Shown: in pieces, positions 1-10,171 of the stretch
Numbering within the stretch: the first letter of the stretch is position 1
How the letters are laid out: each line of letters starts with the position of its first letter
Assembly: GCA_030829985.1 (NCBI GenBank)
Contig: JAURNW010000011.1
Location: 79,086 to 143,085 of the forward strand
Reading direction: 5' to 3'
Origin: Gammaproteobacteria bacterium
GTDB lineage: Bacteria; Pseudomonadota; Gammaproteobacteria; Eutrophobiales; Eutrophobiaceae
Length of the DNA: 64,000 nt
Made by a program: the position numbers and the translations under genes
The notes under the pieces: generated by a model
What the model was told of the DNA's origin: nothing
Database searches by the model: none
Seen by the model: only the letters and a program-made list of their open reading frames with translations

Positions 1-2
1 TA

Positions 3-440
3 ATCAGGCAGGCAGAAGTTAAAGATGATCACAAATTACGCTTTGCTACAAAAGGTTACCTGGAATTTTTGAAACTGGGTGGAAAGCTACGTTATGTTGA
101 TCTCACCACGGGATTACTGCGTAATATTATTCGTCGTCGATTACCTATACTGACCGGGCTTAGTTCAACCTATCTATATAAGGCGAAAAGAGATATTGAT
201 GATGAACCTCTAGGTGATGATATCCGTGGCTACCCGGATGGGCATTTCGTCATTCTGGGCGGTTATCATCGACATGATCGAACCGTGATGATTAGCGATC
301 CTTATGAACCAAATCCAGTATCCGGTTCTTTAACTTATTCTATTAATATAGACCGGGTAATCTGTTCCATCTTATTAGGCGTATTAACTTACGATGCTAA
401 TCTACTGGTCATTCAACCGGCCAATTCCAGGAAAAAATAA
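3..440 (+). CDS. C-terminal fragment of a putative papain/C39-like cysteine-peptidase-domain protein (5' end lies outside the window)
   Basis: The reading frame is open from the window edge. The motif GHFVILGGYHRHDRTVMISDPY resembles the His-containing HF/YVV(L/I) motif of C39-type peptidases. The stop overlaps the start of the next gene (440), suggesting translational coupling. Confidence 0.3.
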   Translation: MRQAEVKDDHKLRFATKGYLEFLKLGGKLRYVDLTTGLLRNIIRRRLPILTGLSSTYLYKAKRDIDDEPLGDDIRGYPDGHFVILGGYHRHDRTVMISDPYEPNPVSGSLTYSINIDRVICSILLGVLTYDANLLVIQPANSRKK

Positions 441-1912
441 TGAATATACTGCTGGTCGTTAACAATCCTAACAACTGGCCGCTGCAGATTCCAGGTGTCA
501 AAGTCGTTGCAGCACGCACCTACCTGACCGATCCTGCTTTTTCGGAAGGTAAAAAAACGAGGGTCTTCAACCTGTGTCGATCCTATAGTTATCAGCGCAC
601 GGGTTATTACGTATCGCTTCTGGCTGCCGCACGCGGACATAAACCCATGCCTGATATCAACACTATCCAGGATCTAAAGTCGCCACATGTCATACAGGCT
701 ATATCAGAAGATATGGAAGAGTTGATAGAGAAAAAACTCGGCCACTTACAATCCAAACGTTTCACCTTGAGTATTTATTTTGGCAGGAATATCGCAAAAC
801 ATTATGACAGTCTTAGTTTGAGGTTGTTTAACTTGTTTCAGGCACCTCTATTACAGGCTAAATTTATAAAAAGGAAAACGTGGCGACTGGAATCAATACG
901 TACTATGACAGTAAACGATATTCCTGAAAATCATCAGGCTATTGTCATCGAAGCCGCATCAAATTATTTTTCAGGACGCAAACGTCGTATTAAAAAAGAT
1001 GCTGCAACGAGATTTGACCTTGCAATTTTGTATGACCCAAATGAGAAAGAACCGCCTTCTGATGAAAAGGCATTAAAAAAATTCCAGAAAGCAGCAGAAT
1101 CTGTCGGTCTTGAGTGCGAATTTATTACCAAAAATGATGTGAATCGTCTGGCTGAATTCGATGGATTATTTATACGCGAAACTACTCTGGTAGATCATCA
1201 CACTTTCCGCTTTGCACAACGTGCTGTAAATGAAGGTCTGATCGTAATGGATGATCCTAATTCAATACTAAAATGTACAAACAAGGTCTATCTGGCTGAG
1301 TTGATGACGAGACATAATATTCCCATACCCAAAACCATGATCGTACATCGCTACAATATTGACCAGATTGAAAAGACATTGGGCTTGCCCTGTATTTTAA
1401 AAAAACCAGACAGTGCATTTTCTATGGGTGTATCTAAAGCGGAGAATCGTGAAGATTTAATCGCAACCGTAAAATCACTACTTGAAGACTCGGATCTGAT
1501 CATAGCACAACAATTCCTGCCGACTAATTTTGACTGGCGTATTGGTATTTGTGATCGTAGACCACTATATGCGTGTCGTTATCACATGGCCGATAAACAC
1601 TGGCAGATTATCAAGCGTGATGCGTCCGGAAATTCCACTAGTGAAGGAAACGCCGATACGATGGCTATCGGTGAAGCACCTGATGAAGTTGTGAGTATCG
1701 CACTAAAAGCGGCAAACCTGATAGGTGATAGCCTTTATGGTGTCGATCTAAAACAGGTGGGACAGAAATTTTATTTAATTGAGATTAATGACAACCCAAG
1801 CATAGACTCCGGTTGCGAGGATCTAGTTCTGAAGGATGCACTCTACCGGGAAATCATGGGTGTGTTTATCAAACGCATCGAGGCTCGAAAACTCGGTTTA
1901 TACGGACGTTAG
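440..1912 (+). CDS. RimK-like ATP-grasp amide ligase with an N-terminal extension of about 200 aa (RLAN-like)
   Basis: The C-terminal half carries ATP-grasp signatures (LPCILKKPDSAFSMGVSK, QQFLPTNFDWRIGICDRRPLYACRYHMADKHWQI) typical of RimK/glutathione-synthetase-fold ligases. The N-terminal domain precedes the grasp fold. Confidence 0.75.
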   Translation: MNILLVVNNPNNWPLQIPGVKVVAARTYLTDPAFSEGKKTRVFNLCRSYSYQRTGYYVSLLAAARGHKPMPDINTIQDLKSPHVIQAISEDMEELIEKKLGHLQSKRFTLSIYFGRNIAKHYDSLSLRLFNLFQAPLLQAKFIKRKTWRLESIRTMTVNDIPENHQAIVIEAASNYFSGRKRRIKKDAATRFDLAILYDPNEKEPPSDEKALKKFQKAAESVGLECEFITKNDVNRLAEFDGLFIRETTLVDHHTFRFAQRAVNEGLIVMDDPNSILKCTNKVYLAELMTRHNIPIPKTMIVHRYNIDQIEKTLGLPCILKKPDSAFSMGVSKAENREDLIATVKSLLEDSDLIIAQQFLPTNFDWRIGICDRRPLYACRYHMADKHWQIIKRDASGNSTSEGNADTMAIGEAPDEVVSIALKAANLIGDSLYGVDLKQVGQKFYLIEINDNPSIDSGCEDLVLKDALYREIMGVFIKRIEARKLGLYGR

Positions 1913-1913
1913 T

Positions 1914-3158
1914 ATGCCAAAGCCACTATCAATCTTTGCCGCCTATGGCATAGAACTCGAATACATGATTGTTGATCGCAAACATATGAATGTGATGCCG
2001 ATCACCGATAAGGTCCTACATCATGTCGCTGGTGAATATCGTAACGAAATAGAACAGGGTGAAATTGCCTGGTCGAATGAACTTGTATTACACGTTATTG
2101 AAACTAAAACCAATGGCCCGGCACAGTCCTTACTAGAAACTCCCGATCATTTTTTAAAAAATATAAGGCATATTCAATCTATTCTTGATGAGATGGGCGC
2201 GCGCCTGATGCCGACTGCCATGCACCCGTGGATGAACCCCTTTAAAGAAACGCAATTATGGCCACATGATTCTAAAGAAATATATGATACCTACAACGGC
2301 ATCTTTAATTGTCAGGGACATGGTTGGTCAAACCTGCAAAGCATGCACATCAACTTGCCATTTGCGAACGATAAGGAGTTTGCTCTATTACATAGTGCAA
2401 TACGAACCATACTTCCCATCTTGCCAGCAATGGCAGCAAGTTCCCCAATAGTTGAAGGCTCATCTACAGGGATCATGGATACACGTCTCGAAGCCTATCG
2501 TCAAAATTCAAAGATTATTCCATCCATTACCGGACTGGTAGTTCCTGAAGCAGTTACGAGCAAAAAAGACTATCAACGCTTGATCCTGAAGCCCATGTAT
2601 AAAGCTATTGCACCGTTTGATAAAGAGAAGATCTTGCAGGATGAATGGTTAAATTCACGTGGGGCCATAGCGCGGTTTGATAGAAATGCGATTGAGATAC
2701 GAGTATTAGACACGCAAGAAACGCCTGCCGTCGATCTGGCCATTGCCAGTTTTATCATCCAGATATTAAAGAAGCTGACTGAAAAAAGCTGGTCTGATGT
2801 CGTCGAACAAAACAATCTGGAGACAACCGCATTATCTCAAATACTGAATAAGGTAATTATCGATGCTGATCAAGCTGTTATAGATGATCGAGACTATCTG
2901 CAATTGTTCTCGTTTCCAGACAAAAAATGCAGTGCACAGGAATTATGGCAACACTGCCGAGAGTCAGTTAATCTGAATACGGGCGAATACGCTGCAGCAA
3001 CTACACCGATTATTGAATTCATTTTAAAAGAAGGCCCGTTAGCCAGACGGATACTCAACGCAACAGGCAAAAGTGTTAAAAAGTCACGACTACATGAAAC
3101 TTATCGTGTGCTCTGTGACGCACTGGTTGATAGAGAATATTTTGTTGGTATCGACTGA
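1914..3158 (+). CDS. GCS2-family (YbdK-like glutamate-cysteine-ligase family 2) carboxylate-amine ligase
   Basis: An ATG at 1914 (MPKPLSIFAAYGIELEYMIVD) lies 1 nt after the upstream stop. The GIELEYMIV motif and overall length match COG2170/GCS2 enzymes. Confidence 0.8.
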   Translation: MPKPLSIFAAYGIELEYMIVDRKHMNVMPITDKVLHHVAGEYRNEIEQGEIAWSNELVLHVIETKTNGPAQSLLETPDHFLKNIRHIQSILDEMGARLMPTAMHPWMNPFKETQLWPHDSKEIYDTYNGIFNCQGHGWSNLQSMHINLPFANDKEFALLHSAIRTILPILPAMAASSPIVEGSSTGIMDTRLEAYRQNSKIIPSITGLVVPEAVTSKKDYQRLILKPMYKAIAPFDKEKILQDEWLNSRGAIARFDRNAIEIRVLDTQETPAVDLAIASFIIQILKKLTEKSWSDVVEQNNLETTALSQILNKVIIDADQAVIDDRDYLQLFSFPDKKCSAQELWQHCRESVNLNTGEYAAATTPIIEFILKEGPLARRILNATGKSVKKSRLHETYRVLCDALVDREYFVGID

Positions 3159-3850
3159 TGAATATCATTATTAGCTGTGAACATGGCGGTAACAAGATTC
3201 CAAAATGCTATCTGCCACTTTTTAAAAATAAAAAAATCCTTTTAAACAGCCATCGTGGATGGGATCCCGGAGCATTGGCCCTTGCTAATAAAATAACTCA
3301 AGATTTATCAGCGCCCTTATATTATTCAACCACCTCTCGTTTATTAATTGATCTCAATCGTTCATTACACCACCCCAAACTATTTTCGGAGTTTAGCAAA
3401 ACTGTAGATGATACTACCCGACAGAAAATAATTGATACTATTTATATACCCTATCGAACCAGAATAACGGAACATATAAAAAAGTTTAAATCAGCAACGA
3501 CACCAACAATGCACCTATCCATCCACTCGTTTACAAGCTCACTGGGTGGTATCGAGCGTTCAGCTGATATTGGCTTACTTTATGATCCGACAAGACAATC
3601 TGAAAAAAACTTTTGTAAAAAATTACAAAAGTCTCTCAAACAGGCTTTTCCTCATCTCATTGTCAGATGTAATTATCCCTACCGAGGCAACGCAAATGGA
3701 TTGACAACATCGCTGCGTCGCCAATTTAATGGAAGAGACTATTCAGGGATTGAAATTGAGATTAATCAAAAACATATTATTGCTAATAATAAAGCATGGT
3801 TGATGATAAAAAAGAAGCTTGGTAATTTAATATTAGATAATGTCAAATAA
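3158..3850 (+). CDS. N-formylglutamate amidohydrolase (FGase) family hydrolase
   Basis: The SCEHGGN motif near the N-terminus is characteristic of the FGase/HutG-like family. The start overlaps the upstream stop (TGATG). Confidence 0.75.
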   Translation: MNIIISCEHGGNKIPKCYLPLFKNKKILLNSHRGWDPGALALANKITQDLSAPLYYSTTSRLLIDLNRSLHHPKLFSEFSKTVDDTTRQKIIDTIYIPYRTRITEHIKKFKSATTPTMHLSIHSFTSSLGGIERSADIGLLYDPTRQSEKNFCKKLQKSLKQAFPHLIVRCNYPYRGNANGLTTSLRRQFNGRDYSGIEIEINQKHIIANNKAWLMIKKKLGNLILDNVK

Positions 3851-3884
3851 GTATTTACTCAATTAAAAGGATAACAATGCTTTA

Positions 3885-4940
3885 ATGTTAGATAATGAAT
3901 TCATAGATTTACTTAAAGCTATCATCCGCCAACCGAGTGTTGTAGGTGCTGAACATTCATTCTTTAGAGTCTTACAGCGTGAGCTTGAAGAAAGAGGTGC
4001 GAAAGTAACCTGGTATGAGGGTTTGTTAGTCGCACAGGGCGATAATCCGTTTAGCACTATGTTTTCGGCACATATCGATCGTCACGGTCTTGTCTGTACT
4101 GGTCCAAATGAATTTCAATTTGCTGCTTTCATTGCAGGCAACAGGACTGATCTGCTAAACAATTCTGTTTCCGAAGAATTGATGTCCAAGGTTACTGAAC
4201 GCTTCCAGTCTGAACCTGTGTTTGCCTACGAACCCTGGTCTGGTGCCTATCGTGGCAATGGCATAATTAAAAATTCTTATGTCTGTGAGAACAGGAACAA
4301 CCTTATATTCGAACTTGAGGGCCTGGATGATGTTGTAGCAGGAACGCCTATCGCCTTTAAAGACAAACTCAAGTTCAACAATGGCCGTCTTGAAGGGCAA
4401 TTAGATAATGTCTTAAGTGCTGCGGCACTGGTTCATTTATTCAGTCTTGGTTTTAAAGGCACTGCGTTTTTCACTGCCCAGGAAGAAGCGGGTAAAAGTT
4501 GGCGTTATTTACTGGAATGGTTTCGCCGCTTTGGTGGCTCAACCAACCGTTTGTTCGTTGTTGATACCAGTCCATTTCCAGACATTAATTCTGCCAATGA
4601 ACAACTCCTGGTATTAAGACAAAAAGATGCCAATGCGCCTTTTAATAAAGAGGCGACTACTCATATTGAAAACTTATGCAGAGAAAATAATTTAAGCTAT
4701 TTATATAAAGACCATTACGTAGAGGCTGATAACGCTCGCCTGCAAAGTCTGGGACAGAAACCACATTCATTAGGCAGTACAGAAATGGGCAGAATAATTG
4801 CGGCATCAAATGGCTTGGTCGACGGCACAACCATTCAAATACCAACTACCGGCTATCACACCATGGAAGAATCTGCCGCGATCGAATCAGTTGAAGCATA
4901 TATAAAACTACTATCTCTTTTAGCGAATAATGTTTCCTAA
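3885..4940 (+). CDS. M42/M20-clan metallopeptidase-like protein
   Basis: The SAHIDRHGLVCTG motif resembles the metal-binding AHxDxxG region of M42 (FrvX-like) aminopeptidases. It is the last gene of the co-directional cluster. Confidence 0.55.
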   Translation: MLDNEFIDLLKAIIRQPSVVGAEHSFFRVLQRELEERGAKVTWYEGLLVAQGDNPFSTMFSAHIDRHGLVCTGPNEFQFAAFIAGNRTDLLNNSVSEELMSKVTERFQSEPVFAYEPWSGAYRGNGIIKNSYVCENRNNLIFELEGLDDVVAGTPIAFKDKLKFNNGRLEGQLDNVLSAAALVHLFSLGFKGTAFFTAQEEAGKSWRYLLEWFRRFGGSTNRLFVVDTSPFPDINSANEQLLVLRQKDANAPFNKEATTHIENLCRENNLSYLYKDHYVEADNARLQSLGQKPHSLGSTEMGRIIAASNGLVDGTTIQIPTTGYHTMEESAAIESVEAYIKLLSLLANNVS

Positions 4941-5283
4941 TCGAGGTAAAACTATTCATACAGCTCATAAATTTTATATTTCTACTTGTTAGTTGCTCAT
5001 TATTTAGCAAATCAGTTTATTAATATTTACGGAGCGTAATTTTTAATAGACCAAGCTTATAAAATGGTCAAGGTTTGTCTGAAGTGGGTGCTTTAGTATA
5101 ACCCGGTTTTTGCGCAGACTTATTTATTAGCTGTTTCGTTCCAACGCTGCAATGCACGTTCATAATAATCATAAACACAATTCTCACAATTACGATTGCA
5201 ACACTCTTCAGTGTCTGGCTTAACGGGTTTTGTAGGGTATTTTTTGTCTTCCGTTCCTTATTCATTCTGGTAGCTAATATTCA

Positions 5284-8200: not shown

Positions 8201-9154
8201 CTAATCCAGAAACATAGAGCTTAGGGATTCGCCTTCTGCAATTCGGCGCATACTCTCAGCTAGCATCGCTGCAACACTAAGTTGACGTATGCGATCACAG
8301 GTTGCTGCATCTGAGCGAAGCGGGATTGTATCTGTTACTACCAATTCATCAAGTCTTGAATTCTCAATATTTTTCACGGCATTGCCGGAAAGCACTGGAT
8401 GAGTACAGTAAGCGACCACTTTTACTGCCCCAAAATCTTTCAAAGCACCGGCGGCATTACATAATGTCCCGGCCGTATCGACCAAATCATCGATAATTAC
8501 ACAGGTTCGACCTTCTACATCACCGATGATATTCATAATCTCGGATTGATTCGGGTTTGGACGACGTTTATCAATAATCGCCAGTTCAGTATCATCAAGC
8601 CGTTTGGCCAGCGCCCGGGCACGTACCACACCGCCAACATCAGGCGAAACTACCATTAAATCGGGGTATTTATGTTTCCATAAATCGCCCAATAGCACTG
8701 GAGATCCATAGACATTGTCTAGCGGGATATCAAAAAAGCCCTGTATCTGATCGGCATGTAAATCAACCGTCAATACACGATCAATACCGGCAGCAGCAAT
8801 CATATTAGCGACCACTTTTGCGGTAATCGGGACACGCGCTGAACGTGAACGTCGATCCTGGCGTGCATAGCCTAAATAAGGGATAACCGCTGTAATTCGA
8901 GTAGCTGAAGCACGTTTCAGGGCATCAGCCATAACCAATAATTCCATCAAATTGTCATTGGTCGGCGCACACACCGGTTGCATGATATAAGCATCGCGGC
9001 CACGGACATTTTCATTTATTTCAACCATGACTTCGCCATCGCTGAAACGGCCCACGGATATCTTACCCAACGGGATATTCAGGTACTCTGCTGACTCAAG
9101 TGCTAATTTCGGGTTTGCGTTACCACTGAACAACATCATGTTGGAGATGGACAT
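8201..9154 (-). CDS. prs: ribose-phosphate pyrophosphokinase
   Basis: The [12 protein letters not shown]...FSDGEV start and the PRPP-binding loop DLVDTAGT identify Prs. Its position between pth/rplY and ispE is conserved. Confidence 0.95.
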
Positions 9155-9185: not shown

Positions 9186-9262
9186 TGGCTGGGGTACGAG
9201 GACTCGAACCTCGGAATGCATGGATCAAAACCATGTGCCTTAACCAGCTTGGCCATACCCCA
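9186..9262 (-). tRNA. tRNA-Gln (anticodon TTG)
   Basis: The reverse complement reads TGGGGTATGGCCAAGCTGGTTAAGGCACATGGTTTTGATCCATGCATTCCGAGGTTCGAGTCCTCGTACCCCAGCCA. It has a 7-bp acceptor stem, an anticodon stem CATGG/CCATG with loop TTTTGAT, a T-arm GGTTCGAGTCC and a 3' CCA. The same prs-tRNA-Gln-ispE synteny occurs in pseudomonads. Confidence 0.85.
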
Positions 9263-9301
9263 ATTAATCGTTTCTAATATCTTTTTACGAATGAACTGTA
9301 A

Positions 9302-10171
9302 TTATATTCGCTGTCGTTCAGTCGCCAATCGTTCCAATAAGGGTGATTTATTCATCCCTTTTACTACATAGCCTTGCCATGTTTCTGGCAATTGCTCTTT
9401 AACTTGTATTGCTGCATGACTATCTGAGAATGGAGCAAATAAACAGGCACCCGTACCGGTTAGCTTTGCTGGCGCAAATTGCCCCAACCATTCAAGGGCA
9501 TTTGCGACCTCTTTATAGTGTTTTTGCACTACAGATTCACAGTCATTTCTTCCTCCTCTATCGAGGAAGTCGCGTATTGTGATTGGAGGCGTATTCCGTG
9601 TCAAATCCTCTGCATTAAATACTGAGGCAGTCGCAACACTACAACCCGGATGTATAAGCAAATAAATGCATTCTTCCGGTTCAATTGCTGTTAACTCTTC
9701 ACCCACACCTTCAGCCCAGGCCGCATAACCATGCACAAATATCGGCACATCAGCGCCTAGCGACAGACCTATAGCTGCTAATTCGTTACTCGATAAGCCA
9801 CACTGCCATAATTCATTTAAGGCGACCAGGGTCGTTGCCGCATTTGAACTACCACCTCCCAAACCACCGCCAGTTGGAATTATCTTGTTTACGCTGATAT
9901 CAACACCAAGCTTACTACCGGTATGCTCCTTCAAGGATCGTGCAGCTCTGACAACCAGATCATCCTCGGCAGCAACATCGATCAGGGTTGAACTCCGTGT
10001 AACTTTATCTGAATCGAGAATCCTGAGATCAAGCTCATCAATCAGATCAATAAACTGGAAAACTGTTTGCAAGGAATGGTAGCCATCCGGTCGTCGACCC
10101 GTAATATGTAAAAATAAATTGAGTTTTGCCGGTGCCGGCCAGTTAGTACTTAGCAATGTCTCATCCTGCAA
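9302..10171 (-). CDS. ispE: 4-diphosphocytidyl-2-C-methyl-D-erythritol kinase
   Basis: PAPAKLNLFLHITGRRPDGYH and a GHMP-kinase glycine-rich loop (PTGGGLGGGSSNAA). Confidence 0.9.
   Translation of the reverse strand: MQDETLLSTNWPAPAKLNLFLHITGRRPDGYHSLQTVFQFIDLIDELDLRILDSDKVTRSSTLIDVAAEDDLVVRAARSLKEHTGSKLGVDISVNKIIPTGGGLGGGSSNAATTLVALNELWQCGLSSNELAAIGLSLGADVPIFVHGYAAWAEGVGEELTAIEPEECIYLLIHPGCSVATASVFNAEDLTRNTPPITIRDFLDRGGRNDCESVVQKHYKEVANALEWLGQFAPAKLTGTGACLFAPFSDSHAAIQVKEQLPETWQGYVVKGMNKSPLLERLATERQRI

Follow-up and report, generated by a model that had tools for sequence, protein, structure and literature searches.

Gene neighbourhoods in which an RLAN-RimK-like ATP-grasp ligase lies beside a GCS2-family ligase, an N-formylglutamate-amidohydrolase-like (FGase) enzyme and a peptidase were reportedly predicted by comparative genomics by Iyer, Abhiman, Burroughs and Aravind in 2009. 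The Pfam family RLAN (PF14401), a domain that Pfam describes as uncharacterised, presumably derives from that work. Another ligase encoded together with a peptidase is RimK, by which ribosomal protein S6 is poly-α-glutamylated, a protease (RimB) acting in trimming. RimB, a peptidase encoded alongside RimK, trims what that ligase has made, and the two proteins bind each other (PMC12239564). The locus described here lies at the beginning of a 64,000-nucleotide stretch of bacterial DNA (the window, i.e. the whole stretch that was analysed). In the searchable literature we found no experimental paper on this family, nor any product or role, in agreement with an earlier note on the same DNA that regarded neither product nor role as established.

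Operon structure and the encoded enzymes

The listing of open reading frames gives five genes between 3 and 4940, all on the plus strand and packed end to end. Read directly from the sequence, genes 1 and 2 overlap in TAATG at 438-442, gene 2 ends with TAG at 1910-1912 and is separated by one base from the ATG of gene 3 at 1914, and genes 3 and 4 overlap in TGATG at 3156-3160. Between the TAA of gene 4 (3848-3850) and the ATG of gene 5 at 3885 lie 34 nt that include AAGGA. The overlaps of stop and start codons suggest that the genes are co-translated. Upstream of 69 the first open reading frame (69..440) meets no stop codon as far as base 3, and this gene is thus truncated by the window edge. 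The complete operon was found on identical public contigs, from which the missing upstream DNA was recovered; the first gene is now complete, with 238 codons. On its 5′ side the operon is preceded by a terminator-like hairpin and then 266 nt of spacer, upstream of which lie trpEGDC and an SGL gene. The earlier note had described the open reading frames and junctions correctly, and its five domain assignments (C39-like, RLAN with RimK-like ATP-grasp, GCS2, FGase and a weak M42) hold in Pfam searches. Its statement that there is neither an NRPS nor an obvious precursor ORF is likewise borne out; no NRPS is present, and no precursor is conserved across the related loci.

Gene 1 encodes a C39-like cysteine peptidase of papain fold. 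The window contains its C-terminal 145 codons (3..440, plus strand; residues 94-238 of 238) including the catalytic His174 (243-245) and Asp192 (297-299), and Gln12 and Cys18 are encoded upstream of the window edge. The call of a C39/papain-like domain had been made on the fragment, which scores 17.5 bits against Pfam C39_2, under the cut-off of 24. The full-length protein has the C39 fold with the Gln/Cys/His/Asp set intact and scores 39.4 bits against C39_2 and 28.1 bits against C39 (cut-off 22), and the call stands. Only C39 families were matched in the Pfam scan, with no match to Phytochelatin. It lacks the link to an ABC exporter and to a double-glycine leader peptide that marks bacteriocin-processing peptidases; the protein is stand-alone at 238 aa, and there is no conserved ABC transporter or small ORF nearby.

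The 490-aa product of gene 2 begins with an RLAN domain (440..1009, plus strand; residues 1-190), scoring 165.8 bits in Pfam against a cut-off of 25 over residues 25-171. This identifies the N-terminal extension of about 200 aa to which the earlier note had drawn attention. On modelling, RLAN is predicted to be a reduced ATP-grasp-like fold, probably without catalytic activity. The RimK-like ATP-grasp domain that follows (1010..1912, plus strand; residues 191-490; Pfam RimK, E = 5.3e-11, 42.9 bits against a cut-off of 21) appears to be catalytically intact, in that none of K321, D436, E448 and N450 varies among 80 homologues. On alignment with RimK, R246, R374 and N450 correspond to R64, R189 and N262 respectively. 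R246, the counterpart of the arginine by which RimK holds its acidic acceptor, is invariant in the 80 sequences, and the metal-site asparagine of RimK is conserved as N450. R374 is invariant only in a 13-sequence alignment of closer relatives; across the 80 sequences its conservation drops under 93%. Among NCBIfam families the nearest are rimK_fam, LysX and MptN, each scoring under its cut-off, and the closest named relatives are the glutamate ligases RimK, LysX, MptN and CofF. The earlier note considered that its interpretation would be weakened if the ligase were an orthologue of RimK with rpsF-type context, and this was rejected. The protein scores 24.2 bits against 331 for NF007764, and 62.4 bits against 143.4 for TIGR00768 (rimK_fam); it is 490 aa in length with RLAN, and its gene neighbours are C39-like, GCS2 and FGase, without rpsF or the retropepsin gene rimB.

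Gene 3 (1914..3158, plus strand) encodes a GCS2-family carboxylate-amine ligase of 414 aa (Pfam GCS2, E = 1.4e-25, 90.7 bits against a cut-off of 21). Its start is taken as 1914, as called on the public contigs; the longest ORF begins at 1836. All 64 homologues compared retain E14, E16, E56, H104, H136, E261 and R263, so that the conserved acidic metal ligands of the family are present as E14, E16, E56 and E261. Assignment to the YbdK subfamily was rejected (TIGR02050, 61.8 bits against a cut-off of 176.4), as was equivalence to GshA, for which every NCBIfam model scored far under its cut-off.

Gene 4 (3158..3850, plus strand) encodes an FGase-family, i.e. N-formylglutamate-amidohydrolase-like, protein of 230 aa with the FGase domain and fold (Pfam FGase, E = 3.6e-24, 86.6 bits against a cut-off of 28.9). 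The closest solved chain is Atu2144 (2odf; E = 5.7e-19), and 37 homologues share H9, D36, H119, H123, E199 and E201 without exception. HutG was rejected (TIGR02017, 18.1 bits against 278.75), and hut genes are absent nearby. Putative catalytic and metal-ligand residues are invariant in all four proteins. Since all four lie under the curated cut-offs (RimK, YbdK, HutG), substrate specificity is not transferable to them. When the five window proteins were compared with PADLOC models, the peptidase gave a 17-bit match at the level of chance and the other four gave no match.

Conservation of the module

At least 596 related loci were found in a collection in which each species is represented by a single genome. 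Neighbourhood counts are taken from the best 80 of these, drawn from about a dozen named lineages, and 63 of the 80 are fully flanked. The order C39-like, RLAN-ATP-grasp, GCS2 is retained in 54 of the 63 fully flanked loci; it continues into FGase in 35 and is found as the three genes in 19, and in five the ligase is alone. FGase is present in 36 of the 63 (~57%), and is dispensable in 43%. The C39-like gene adjoins that of the ligase in 69 of 78 loci, and GCS2 is next after the ligase in 62 of 70. The genes are always in the same order and on the same strand, with median gaps along the module of ~5, 2 and -2 nt, and median identity across lineages is 58% for the ligase and 56% for the peptidase. 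The arrangement is no chance juxtaposition; dozens of distant genomes repeat it, in order and in strand. The core is three genes (C39-like, RLAN-ATP-grasp and GCS2), and FGase, which had been taken as a core component, is a frequent accessory. Co-conservation and co-directionality, on which the earlier interpretation depended, hold for genes 1-4 in about a dozen lineages, and fail for gene 5.

Five loci have a class-II (Ntn) GATase_4 gene adjoining the module. It is next to FGase in two (L080 and L067), replaces FGase in one (L043) and lies 5′ of the C39 gene in the other two (L008 and L009). Elsewhere RLAN ligases occur in fusion with a RimI-like GNAT and stand alone, and since solo copies exist (5/63 loci; P. 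aeruginosa) the ligase is not strictly dependent on its partners. The solo copy of P. aeruginosa adjoins glutamate/aspartate ABC transporter genes and ggt, and one variant has a CitMHS/DcuC-type carrier gene in front of that of a GNAT-RLAN ligase. No small-ORF family near the module is common to more than four loci, those four being near-identical and of Thiobacillus type. No conserved transporter, regulator or defence signature was found beside the module in the related loci, and neither the window locus nor the related loci have rpsF, rimB or lysW-type context. We note that the window locus combines an RLAN domain above threshold, an intact-looking RimK-like ATP-grasp domain, and a neighbourhood of GCS2, papain-fold and (often) FGase genes, i.e. 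all the features of an RLAN module.

Proposed function and its alternatives

We give about an even chance to the proposal that genes 1-4 (3..3850) form a cytoplasmic, ribosome-independent amide-ligase/hydrolase module that makes and trims a small glutamate-containing amide or peptide. The making and trimming of such a product, as the earlier note had it, agrees with the chemistry of these families. The GCS2 protein would form an amide, at the expense of ATP, between an amine and a carboxylate, for which the γ-carboxyl of glutamate is the most plausible candidate, and the RimK-like ligase would add glutamate (or another amino acid) to the free C-terminal carboxylate of a small acidic acceptor. 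Cutting, transfer or trimming of these amide bonds would fall to the thiol enzyme of C39 type and to the FGase-like enzyme, and the net effect would be to set the level or length of a small glutamate-containing peptide or amide inside the cell. Such logic may be likened to the synthesis of glutathione, NAAG and NAGGN, and to the RimK/RimB ligase-protease pair.

The kinship of the ligase with glutamate ligases and the conservation of R246 and N450 point to glutamate chemistry on a small molecule, as do the GATase_4 neighbours in five loci. The GNAT-RLAN fusion is a self-contained arrangement that would suit an N-acyl-dipeptide synthetase and points the same way, and we count the lack of a conserved small ORF, transporter or regulator in this direction also. 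Against this, the chemical steps are all drawn from family membership, the ligase is found alone in some genomes, and identities of 55-60% across distant lineages are unusually high for a secondary-metabolite enzyme. Moreover C39 peptidases, RimK and LysX act on peptides or proteins and not on metabolites, which would suit protein modification equally well.

Modification of a protein or peptide is the likeliest alternative, though we think it rather unlikely. The RLAN-RimK-like ligase would place glutamates on the C-terminal end of one particular protein, in the way that RimK acts on S6 and LysX on LysW, the C39-like enzyme would trim in the manner of RimB, and GCS2 with the FGase-like enzyme would make and break isopeptides in the manner of PafA and Dop. 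The nearest solved or named relatives of the ligase (RimK, LysX/ArgX) indeed target protein C-termini, and papain-type folds of the C39-like group and its kin (PCAT1, UfSP, PeiR) cut peptides, ubiquitin-like tags and isopeptides. The overlapping and usually adjacent peptidase and ligase genes parallel RimB-RimK, and the high conservation of both proteins between lineages would suit a conserved macromolecular target. Yet no gene for a small protein or other target is conserved in or beside the module, rpsF, rimB and lysW-type context is absent, and characterised GCS2, FGase and GATase_4 members work on small molecules; the GNAT-fused and solo variants also resemble self-contained small-molecule synthetases.

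A broader and more speculative proposal, which we hold to be improbable, is of a widespread bacterial system for tagging proteins or editing their tails. The RLAN pseudo-ligase would recruit a protein, the RimK-like domain would add C-terminal glutamates, an amine would be joined to this tail by GCS2 in PafA-like fashion, and the C39-like and FGase-like enzymes would reverse this. If true, there would be a code like that of Pup or of tubulin glutamylation in at least 10 bacterial phyla. A second novel possibility is that the module makes a hitherto undescribed glutamyl peptide akin to glutathione or NAAG, which would be common in environmental bacteria.

A mainly catabolic or salvage role is very unlikely. 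The C39-like and FGase-like enzymes (here with the M42-like protein) would degrade imported or endogenous glutamyl or N-acyl-glutamate peptides, and the ligases would re-use or activate the pieces. Two to three hydrolases are encoded, and the glutamate/aspartate transporter genes and ggt beside the P. aeruginosa solo copy, like the carrier gene before one GNAT-RLAN ligase, would fit such a role. However, the conserved core has two ATP-consuming ligases to one hydrolase, no transporter is conserved with the module, FGase is missing from 43% of loci, and the M42-like gene is outside the unit.

It is just as doubtful that all five genes are one functional system, as the earlier note had proposed. 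Gene 5 (3885..4940, plus strand) encodes an M42-like metallopeptidase homologue of 351 aa, scoring 24.5 bits against Pfam Peptidase_M42, barely over the cut-off of 23.2 and in the C-terminal half only. A single-sequence search of the PDB gave nothing beyond a marginal 13.7 bits for TET1, an M42 peptidase (E = 0.21; residues 6-76), and a PDB profile search matched no M42 chain. Across 12 homologues H63, D65, D174, E200, E201, D227 and H325 do not vary, and they resemble the M42 co-catalytic pattern (HxD, D, EE, D, H), the equivalence being one of motifs alone. Gene 5 is co-directional with its own Shine-Dalgarno sequence in the 34-nt gap, there is no terminator-like site between genes 4 and 5, and in the NAGGN osmolyte system, too, a RimK-like ligase is accompanied by an M42 peptidase. 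Gene 5 is probably co-transcribed with genes 1-4 here. But it adjoins the module in just one of 80 loci (L007, the nearest relative, 93% identical), its homologues (80-94% identical across proteobacterial classes) occur without the module in five other genomes, each in a different context, and its product matches no NCBIfam family at E ≤ 0.01, so that TIGR03106 is unmatched. The conserved unit therefore has four genes, and gene 5 is a neighbour acquired in this lineage.

Least probable by far is a RiPP/graspetide-type cluster, in which the ATP-grasp enzyme would modify a ribosomal precursor and the C39 peptidase remove its leader: C39 domains classically cleave double-glycine leaders and the RiPP ligases CdnC, PsnB and MdnC are among the lower-scoring fold matches, but a small ORF is conserved in no more than the four Thiobacillus-type loci, an ABC transporter is neither fused nor adjacent, and the ligase belongs to the RimK/LysX clade and not that of the graspetides.

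Relation to known systems

Glutathione and other γ-glutamyl pathways employ a GCS-type ligase (GshA, EgtA), an ATP-grasp ligase (GshB), a class-II GATase (EgtC) and a papain-fold transpeptidase (phytochelatin synthase). The window proteins lie under the GshA, GshB and YbdK thresholds, and the peptidase differs in having no Phytochelatin match. In butirosin biosynthesis a protective group is handled by BtrJ (ATP-grasp), BtrH (papain-fold transferase) and BtrG (γ-glutamyl removal). The window module has no carrier protein or aminoglycoside genes, and the peptidase matches this fold more weakly than it does C39 domains.

RIMKLA and RIMKLB make NAAG and β-citrylglutamate, and we take the NAGGN system (Ngg/AsnO/M42) to pair the RimK-like ligase of TIGR03103 with the M42 peptidase of TIGR03106. 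The window module shares with these a RimK-like ligase and the logic of making a small peptide with a cap. Some members of the RLAN family are GNAT fusions, and as in the NAGGN system an amidotransferase/hydrolase and an M42-type peptidase are near the ligase. None of TIGR03103, TIGR03104 and TIGR03106 matches a window protein at E ≤ 0.01 in NCBIfam, and TIGR03103 reaches only 19 bits against 569, on the GNAT part of one RLAN fusion. The resemblance is one of analogous logic and not of membership.

Like RimK-RimB, the window locus has a RimK-clade ATP-grasp ligase and a co-encoded peptidase, and the ATP/Mg residues and acceptor-binding arginine of RimK are conserved in its ligase (PMC12239564; PMC10092738). 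It differs in that the ligase is non-orthologous and carries RLAN as an additional module of 190 aa, the peptidase is papain-like in fold where RimB is a retropepsin, and there is a GCS2 ligase and no link to rpsF.

The closest agreement is with the neighbourhoods predicted in 2009. The architecture of RLAN with a RimK-like ATP-grasp ligase is the same, and GCS2, the FGase-like enzyme, the papain-fold peptidase, the occasional class-II GATase and the GNAT-fused variants have been re-derived here. The window locus is a member of this predicted kind, from which it differs in nothing essential. What is new is the quantified distinction between a three-gene core and an accessory FGase, the exclusion of the M42-like gene, and the assignment of the RLAN fold as a degenerate, apparently inactive copy of ATP-grasp.

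Organization of the gene unit

The six-frame list of open reading frames and direct reading of the junctions confirm the five closely packed, co-directional genes that the earlier note described as an amide-ligase/hydrolase operon. All lie on the plus strand. The frame of gene 1, encoding a C39-like peptidase, runs uninterrupted from base 3, ends with the stop codon at 438-440 and is truncated by the edge of the window. Gene 2 (440..1912), encoding a ligase of 490 aa with an N-terminal RLAN domain (residues 1-190) and an ATP-grasp domain (residues 191-490), starts within the sequence TAATG; gene 3 (1914..3158; GCS2) starts one base past the TAG at 1910-1912, and gene 4 (3158..3850; FGase) within TGATG. 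Gene 5 (3885..4940; M42-like) is preceded by a 34-nt spacer with the sequence AAGGA. The G+C content is even over the operon region at 36-44%, so that there is no mark of an island.

Downstream, the genes for a glyoxalase, ychF, pth, rplY and prs are on the opposite strand, converging on the operon. A 343-nt AT-rich spacer (4941-5283) lies between the converging M42-like and glyoxalase-family genes, and no terminator-like site was found in it on either strand. A tRNA-Gln (anticodon UUG; 9186-9262, minus strand) is located directly upstream of prs in the prs-rplY-pth-ychF block, and is the sole Rfam or ARAGORN match within the 64-kb window.

The ligase is identical to a database protein found on 17 public contigs. 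Gene 1 is complete on locus L001 (GCA_040265035.1; the window position is the L001 position minus 9561), where it is a 238-aa open reading frame at 9285-10001. The full-length protein scores 39.4 bits with Peptidase_C39_2 and 28.1 bits with Peptidase_C39, both above the Pfam thresholds; the fragment in the window is below that for C39_2. Upstream of gene 1 on L001 are trpEGDC and an SGL-family gene, then a terminator-like hairpin (L001 about 9028-9083) and a 266-nt AT-rich spacer, so that gene 1 is most likely the first of the unit. The spacer contains a weak sigma-70-like site (L001 9211-9238), and a scan for the promoter consensus was no richer than in shuffled sequence. Rfam gave nothing credible upstream of or within the operon, the sole match being a chance 24-bit miRNA on the terminator hairpin.

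Conservation of the module

When one genome per species was scanned, at least 596 related loci came up, of which the best 80 were kept. Neighbouring genes were mapped by tblastn with the five window proteins, replacing a clustering of open reading frames that was confounded by antisense frames in GC-rich loci. Among these best 80 of at least 596, the C39-like gene is directly upstream of the ligase in 69/78 loci, GCS2 is directly downstream in 62/70, and FGase comes next after GCS2 in 36/63. In the 63 of these 80 with full flanks the complete pattern C39-ligase-GCS2-FGase is present in 35 loci and C39-ligase-GCS2 in 19, while the ligase stands alone in five and other partial sets occur in four. 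Gene order and strand are invariable in the mapped loci of this best 80. Close packing is a conserved feature too, with median extrapolated distances between the genes of about 5, 2 and -2 nt. We thus distinguish a core (C39-like, RLAN-ATP-grasp ligase and GCS2) from FGase as an accessory gene, the four together forming the module.

The carriers among the best 80 of at least 596 loci include Gamma-, Beta- and Alphaproteobacteria, Planctomycetota, Nitrospirota/Thermodesulfovibrionia, Desulfobulbaceae, Acidobacteriota, Verrucomicrobiota, Bacteroidota/Balneolaceae, Tectomicrobia, Sumerlaeota and Spirochaetia, and between these lineages the ligase is still 55-60% identical. Median identity in the same 80 is 48-58% for the three core genes. 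An important cellular role is implied, since the core is kept together at this level in carriers as far apart as Gammaproteobacteria and Planctomycetota, Nitrospirota, Acidobacteriota, Bacteroidota and Verrucomicrobiota. Cultured carriers are Thiobacillus thioparus DSM 505, Nitrosomonas communis Nm44, Blastopirellula marina DSM 3645, Pontibacter burrus and Legionella adelaidensis; in the last of these RefSeq annotates the trio 'RimK family protein', 'glutamate-cysteine ligase family protein' and 'N-formylglutamate amidohydrolase'.

In five of the best 80 loci a class-II (Ntn) GATase_4 gene adjoins the module, lying beside FGase (L080, L067), replacing it (L043) or upstream of the C39 gene (L008, L009). 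Genes beyond the 3' side of the module differ between loci and are unrelated, and no recurrent transporter, regulator or small open reading frame was found near the module among the mapped loci. Apparent C39-RLAN and RLAN-ATP-grasp-GCS2 fusions occur in metagenomic gene calls (P0381, P0404, P0417, P0450, P0465). True fusions of the genes are one possibility, but frameshift artefacts where stop and start codons overlap could look the same, and these proteins were therefore left out of the evidence.

The M42-like gene is a lineage-specific neighbour that lies outside the module. Among the best 80 of at least 596 loci it follows the module in L007 alone, a 93%-identical relative. In five genomes it is found alone, in five different contexts, with no RLAN, GCS2 or FGase genes nearby. 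No terminator-like site was found in front of it, so here it may well be co-transcribed with genes 1-4. Of the five-gene unit put forward in the earlier note, then, four genes (the three core genes plus FGase) are conserved together and the fifth falls away.

The M42 assignment of this protein is itself marginal, at 24.5 bits with Peptidase_M42 against a Pfam cut-off of 23.2. An NCBIfam search gave no family, a single-sequence search of the PDB reached no further than the M42 peptidase TET1, at a marginal 13.7 bits, and the family profile matched no M42 chain among PDB sequences, with chance-level TenA matches only. Residues H63-x-D65, D174, E200-E201, D227 and H325 are invariant in the homologues, a set of motifs that would match the arrangement of metal ligands in clan MH peptidases. 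Homologues 80-94% identical are present in Cycloclasticus, Psychromonas, Pseudoalteromonas, Psychrosphaera, Thiomicrorhabdus, Mariprofundus and Nitrosomonas; this conservation spans Gamma-, Beta- and Zetaproteobacteria, and is unusually strong for an uncharacterised peptidase-like protein.

The enzymes and the RLAN domain

Pfam assigns RLAN (6.9e-49) and RimK ATP-grasp domains to gene 2, GCS2 (1.4e-25) to gene 3 and FGase (3.6e-24) to gene 4. Alignments of homologues from the related loci reveal invariant residues in each enzyme: Q12, C18, H174 and D192 in the C39-like peptidase (65 sequences); K321, D436, E448, N450 and many others in the ATP-grasp ligase (80 sequences); E14, E16, E56, H104, H136, E261 and R263 in GCS2 (64 sequences); and H9, D36, H119, H123, E199 and E201 in FGase (37 sequences). 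Judged by these residues all four enzymes look active.

Orthology to characterised enzymes was rejected, as every curated NCBIfam cut-off was missed by a wide margin: the scores were 62 bits against 143 for rimK_fam, 60 against 276 for LysX, 62 against 176 for the YbdK family and 18 against 279 for hutG. Function cannot therefore be transferred from RimK, YbdK/GshA or HutG. The RimK equivalog gave 24 bits against 331, so the circumstance that the earlier note held would weaken its case, i.e. a RimK orthologue in an rpsF-type context, does not apply. The ligase should not be labelled 'RimK' or 'glutathione synthase' in annotation.

Contacts to poly-glutamate and ADP have been reported for Pseudomonas RimK, in a paper that contains no discussion of RLAN proteins (PMC10092738). 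On alignment to RimK structures, R64 of RimK corresponds to R246 of the ligase, invariant in 80 sequences, and N262 to N450. R189 aligns with R374, which is invariant only in a 13-sequence alignment and varies in more distant members. These equivalences would be compatible with an acidic acceptor carrying a free carboxylate.

Structure prediction gave a good model of the C39-like protein, with a pLDDT of 85.5. A Foldseek search with the RLAN model returned ATP-grasp enzymes as 50/50 of the best hits, with probability near 1 and query TM-scores of 0.5-0.59; the alignments cover the whole target with large deletions, and about 161 residues aligned in each comparison with a solved ATP-grasp fold. 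The best-conserved residues of RLAN are N44, Y51, Q52, G55-Y57, R65, F114, G115, P136 and W148; unlike the C-terminal half, these include none of the acidic Asp/Glu/Asn metal-site type. RLAN is thus probably a shrunken, inactive ATP-grasp copy, which would make the ligase a tandem of pseudo-ligase and ligase. At the level of sequence, a test for internal duplication in which hhalign compared the RLAN profile with the protein's own ATP-grasp half was not significant (2.7% probability, one 39-column local match), so that only the predicted fold relates RLAN to ATP-grasp. A degenerate ATP-grasp fold suggests that RLAN may be a pseudo-enzyme domain that recruits substrate or is regulatory.

Proposed role and relation to known systems

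The module is a tightly coupled, conserved gene set with intact catalytic residues. By family it comprises two ATP-dependent carboxylate-amine ligases of unlike fold, together with a thiol enzyme (peptidase or transferase) and a metallo-amidohydrolase. To our knowledge all the characterised relatives of these enzymes handle glutamate. RimK, LysX, MptN and CofF either attach glutamate or draw on its carboxylate, GCS2 and EgtA form gamma-glutamyl amides, FGase splits N-acyl-glutamate, and EgtC-type GATase_4 takes off gamma-glutamyl groups. In the mapped loci, moreover, the module is not accompanied by any conserved gene for a precursor, carrier or exporter. On these grounds the simplest model is that a small amide or peptide containing glutamate is built up and cut back in the cytoplasm, in a cycle, and to this we would give an even chance. 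GCS2 would cap or initiate the product and the RimK-like domain extend it, and its shortening or transfer would fall to the C39-like and FGase-like enzymes. Encoding a ligase together with an antagonistic peptidase has a precedent in RimK-RimB (PMC12239564).

Modification of a protein C-terminus would accord with the peptide-directed nature of the relatives and with the very high conservation, but no target gene is conserved with the module and we consider this unlikely. Salvage or catabolism seems to us decidedly improbable. A defence system was rejected on the PADLOC result, and a RiPP precursor on the clustering of small ORFs in the related loci.

RLAN ligases are also found outside the module. 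An exhaustive search for the domain gave 815 clusters at 50% identity, mostly ligases of about 490 aa. Solo ligases occur beside unrelated genes in some Gallionellaceae and Nitrosomonadales. Some loci of these groups are without C39, GCS2 and FGase genes and have, upstream of the solo ligase and in the same direction, a gene for a LonB/LonC-like protease (L030 4049-6487, and two more loci). The solo RLAN-ATP-grasp protein of P. aeruginosa (L097 6863-8452, NZ_CP133752.1; 529 aa, 41% identical) is annotated 'RimK family alpha-L-glutamate ligase', and its gene adjoins pagP, glutamate/aspartate ABC transporter genes and ggt; NZ_CP133752.1 is labelled a plasmid, though it has chromosomal-type genes. 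From its position and gene order this is probably PA1345. PA1345 is still hypothetical in recent papers, one of which predicts a Cpx-box at -69. No experimental or functional work on RLAN proteins, the gene set or PA1345 was found in the full-text literature searched.

Some RLAN proteins of 636-646 aa have the architecture RimI-like GNAT-RLAN-ATP-grasp, and their genes are without C39, GCS2 or FGase partners (L091-L096; P0467/P0492). Ahead of the fusion gene, L091 and L092 have a gene for a CitMHS/DcuC-type carrier and one for a second GNAT. An acetyltransferase with a RimK-like ligase makes small N-acyl dipeptides in Ngg (NAGGN) and in NAT8L plus RIMKLA (NAAG). The fusions resemble Ngg in this arrangement, but a GNAT fusion scored only 19 bits against 569 with TIGR03103; they are therefore not orthologues, and membership of the NAGGN system was rejected.

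Nothing at the source locus is exceptional; the module is widely conserved and had already been flagged by comparative genomics. The reading in the earlier note is supported in part, for a conserved module of four genes rather than five. The defined unit, its active-looking enzymes and the cultured carriers narrow the experimental target. Neighbourhoods of RLAN, GCS2, FGase and peptidase genes were reportedly predicted by comparative genomics by Iyer et al. in 2009, and the Pfam entry for RLAN is said to state likewise. The locus is no artefact, nor is it of a new kind; it belongs with these predicted yet uncharacterised systems, to which we add the division into core and accessory genes, the removal of the M42-like gene from the unit, the probable ATP-grasp-like fold of RLAN and a list of cultured carriers.
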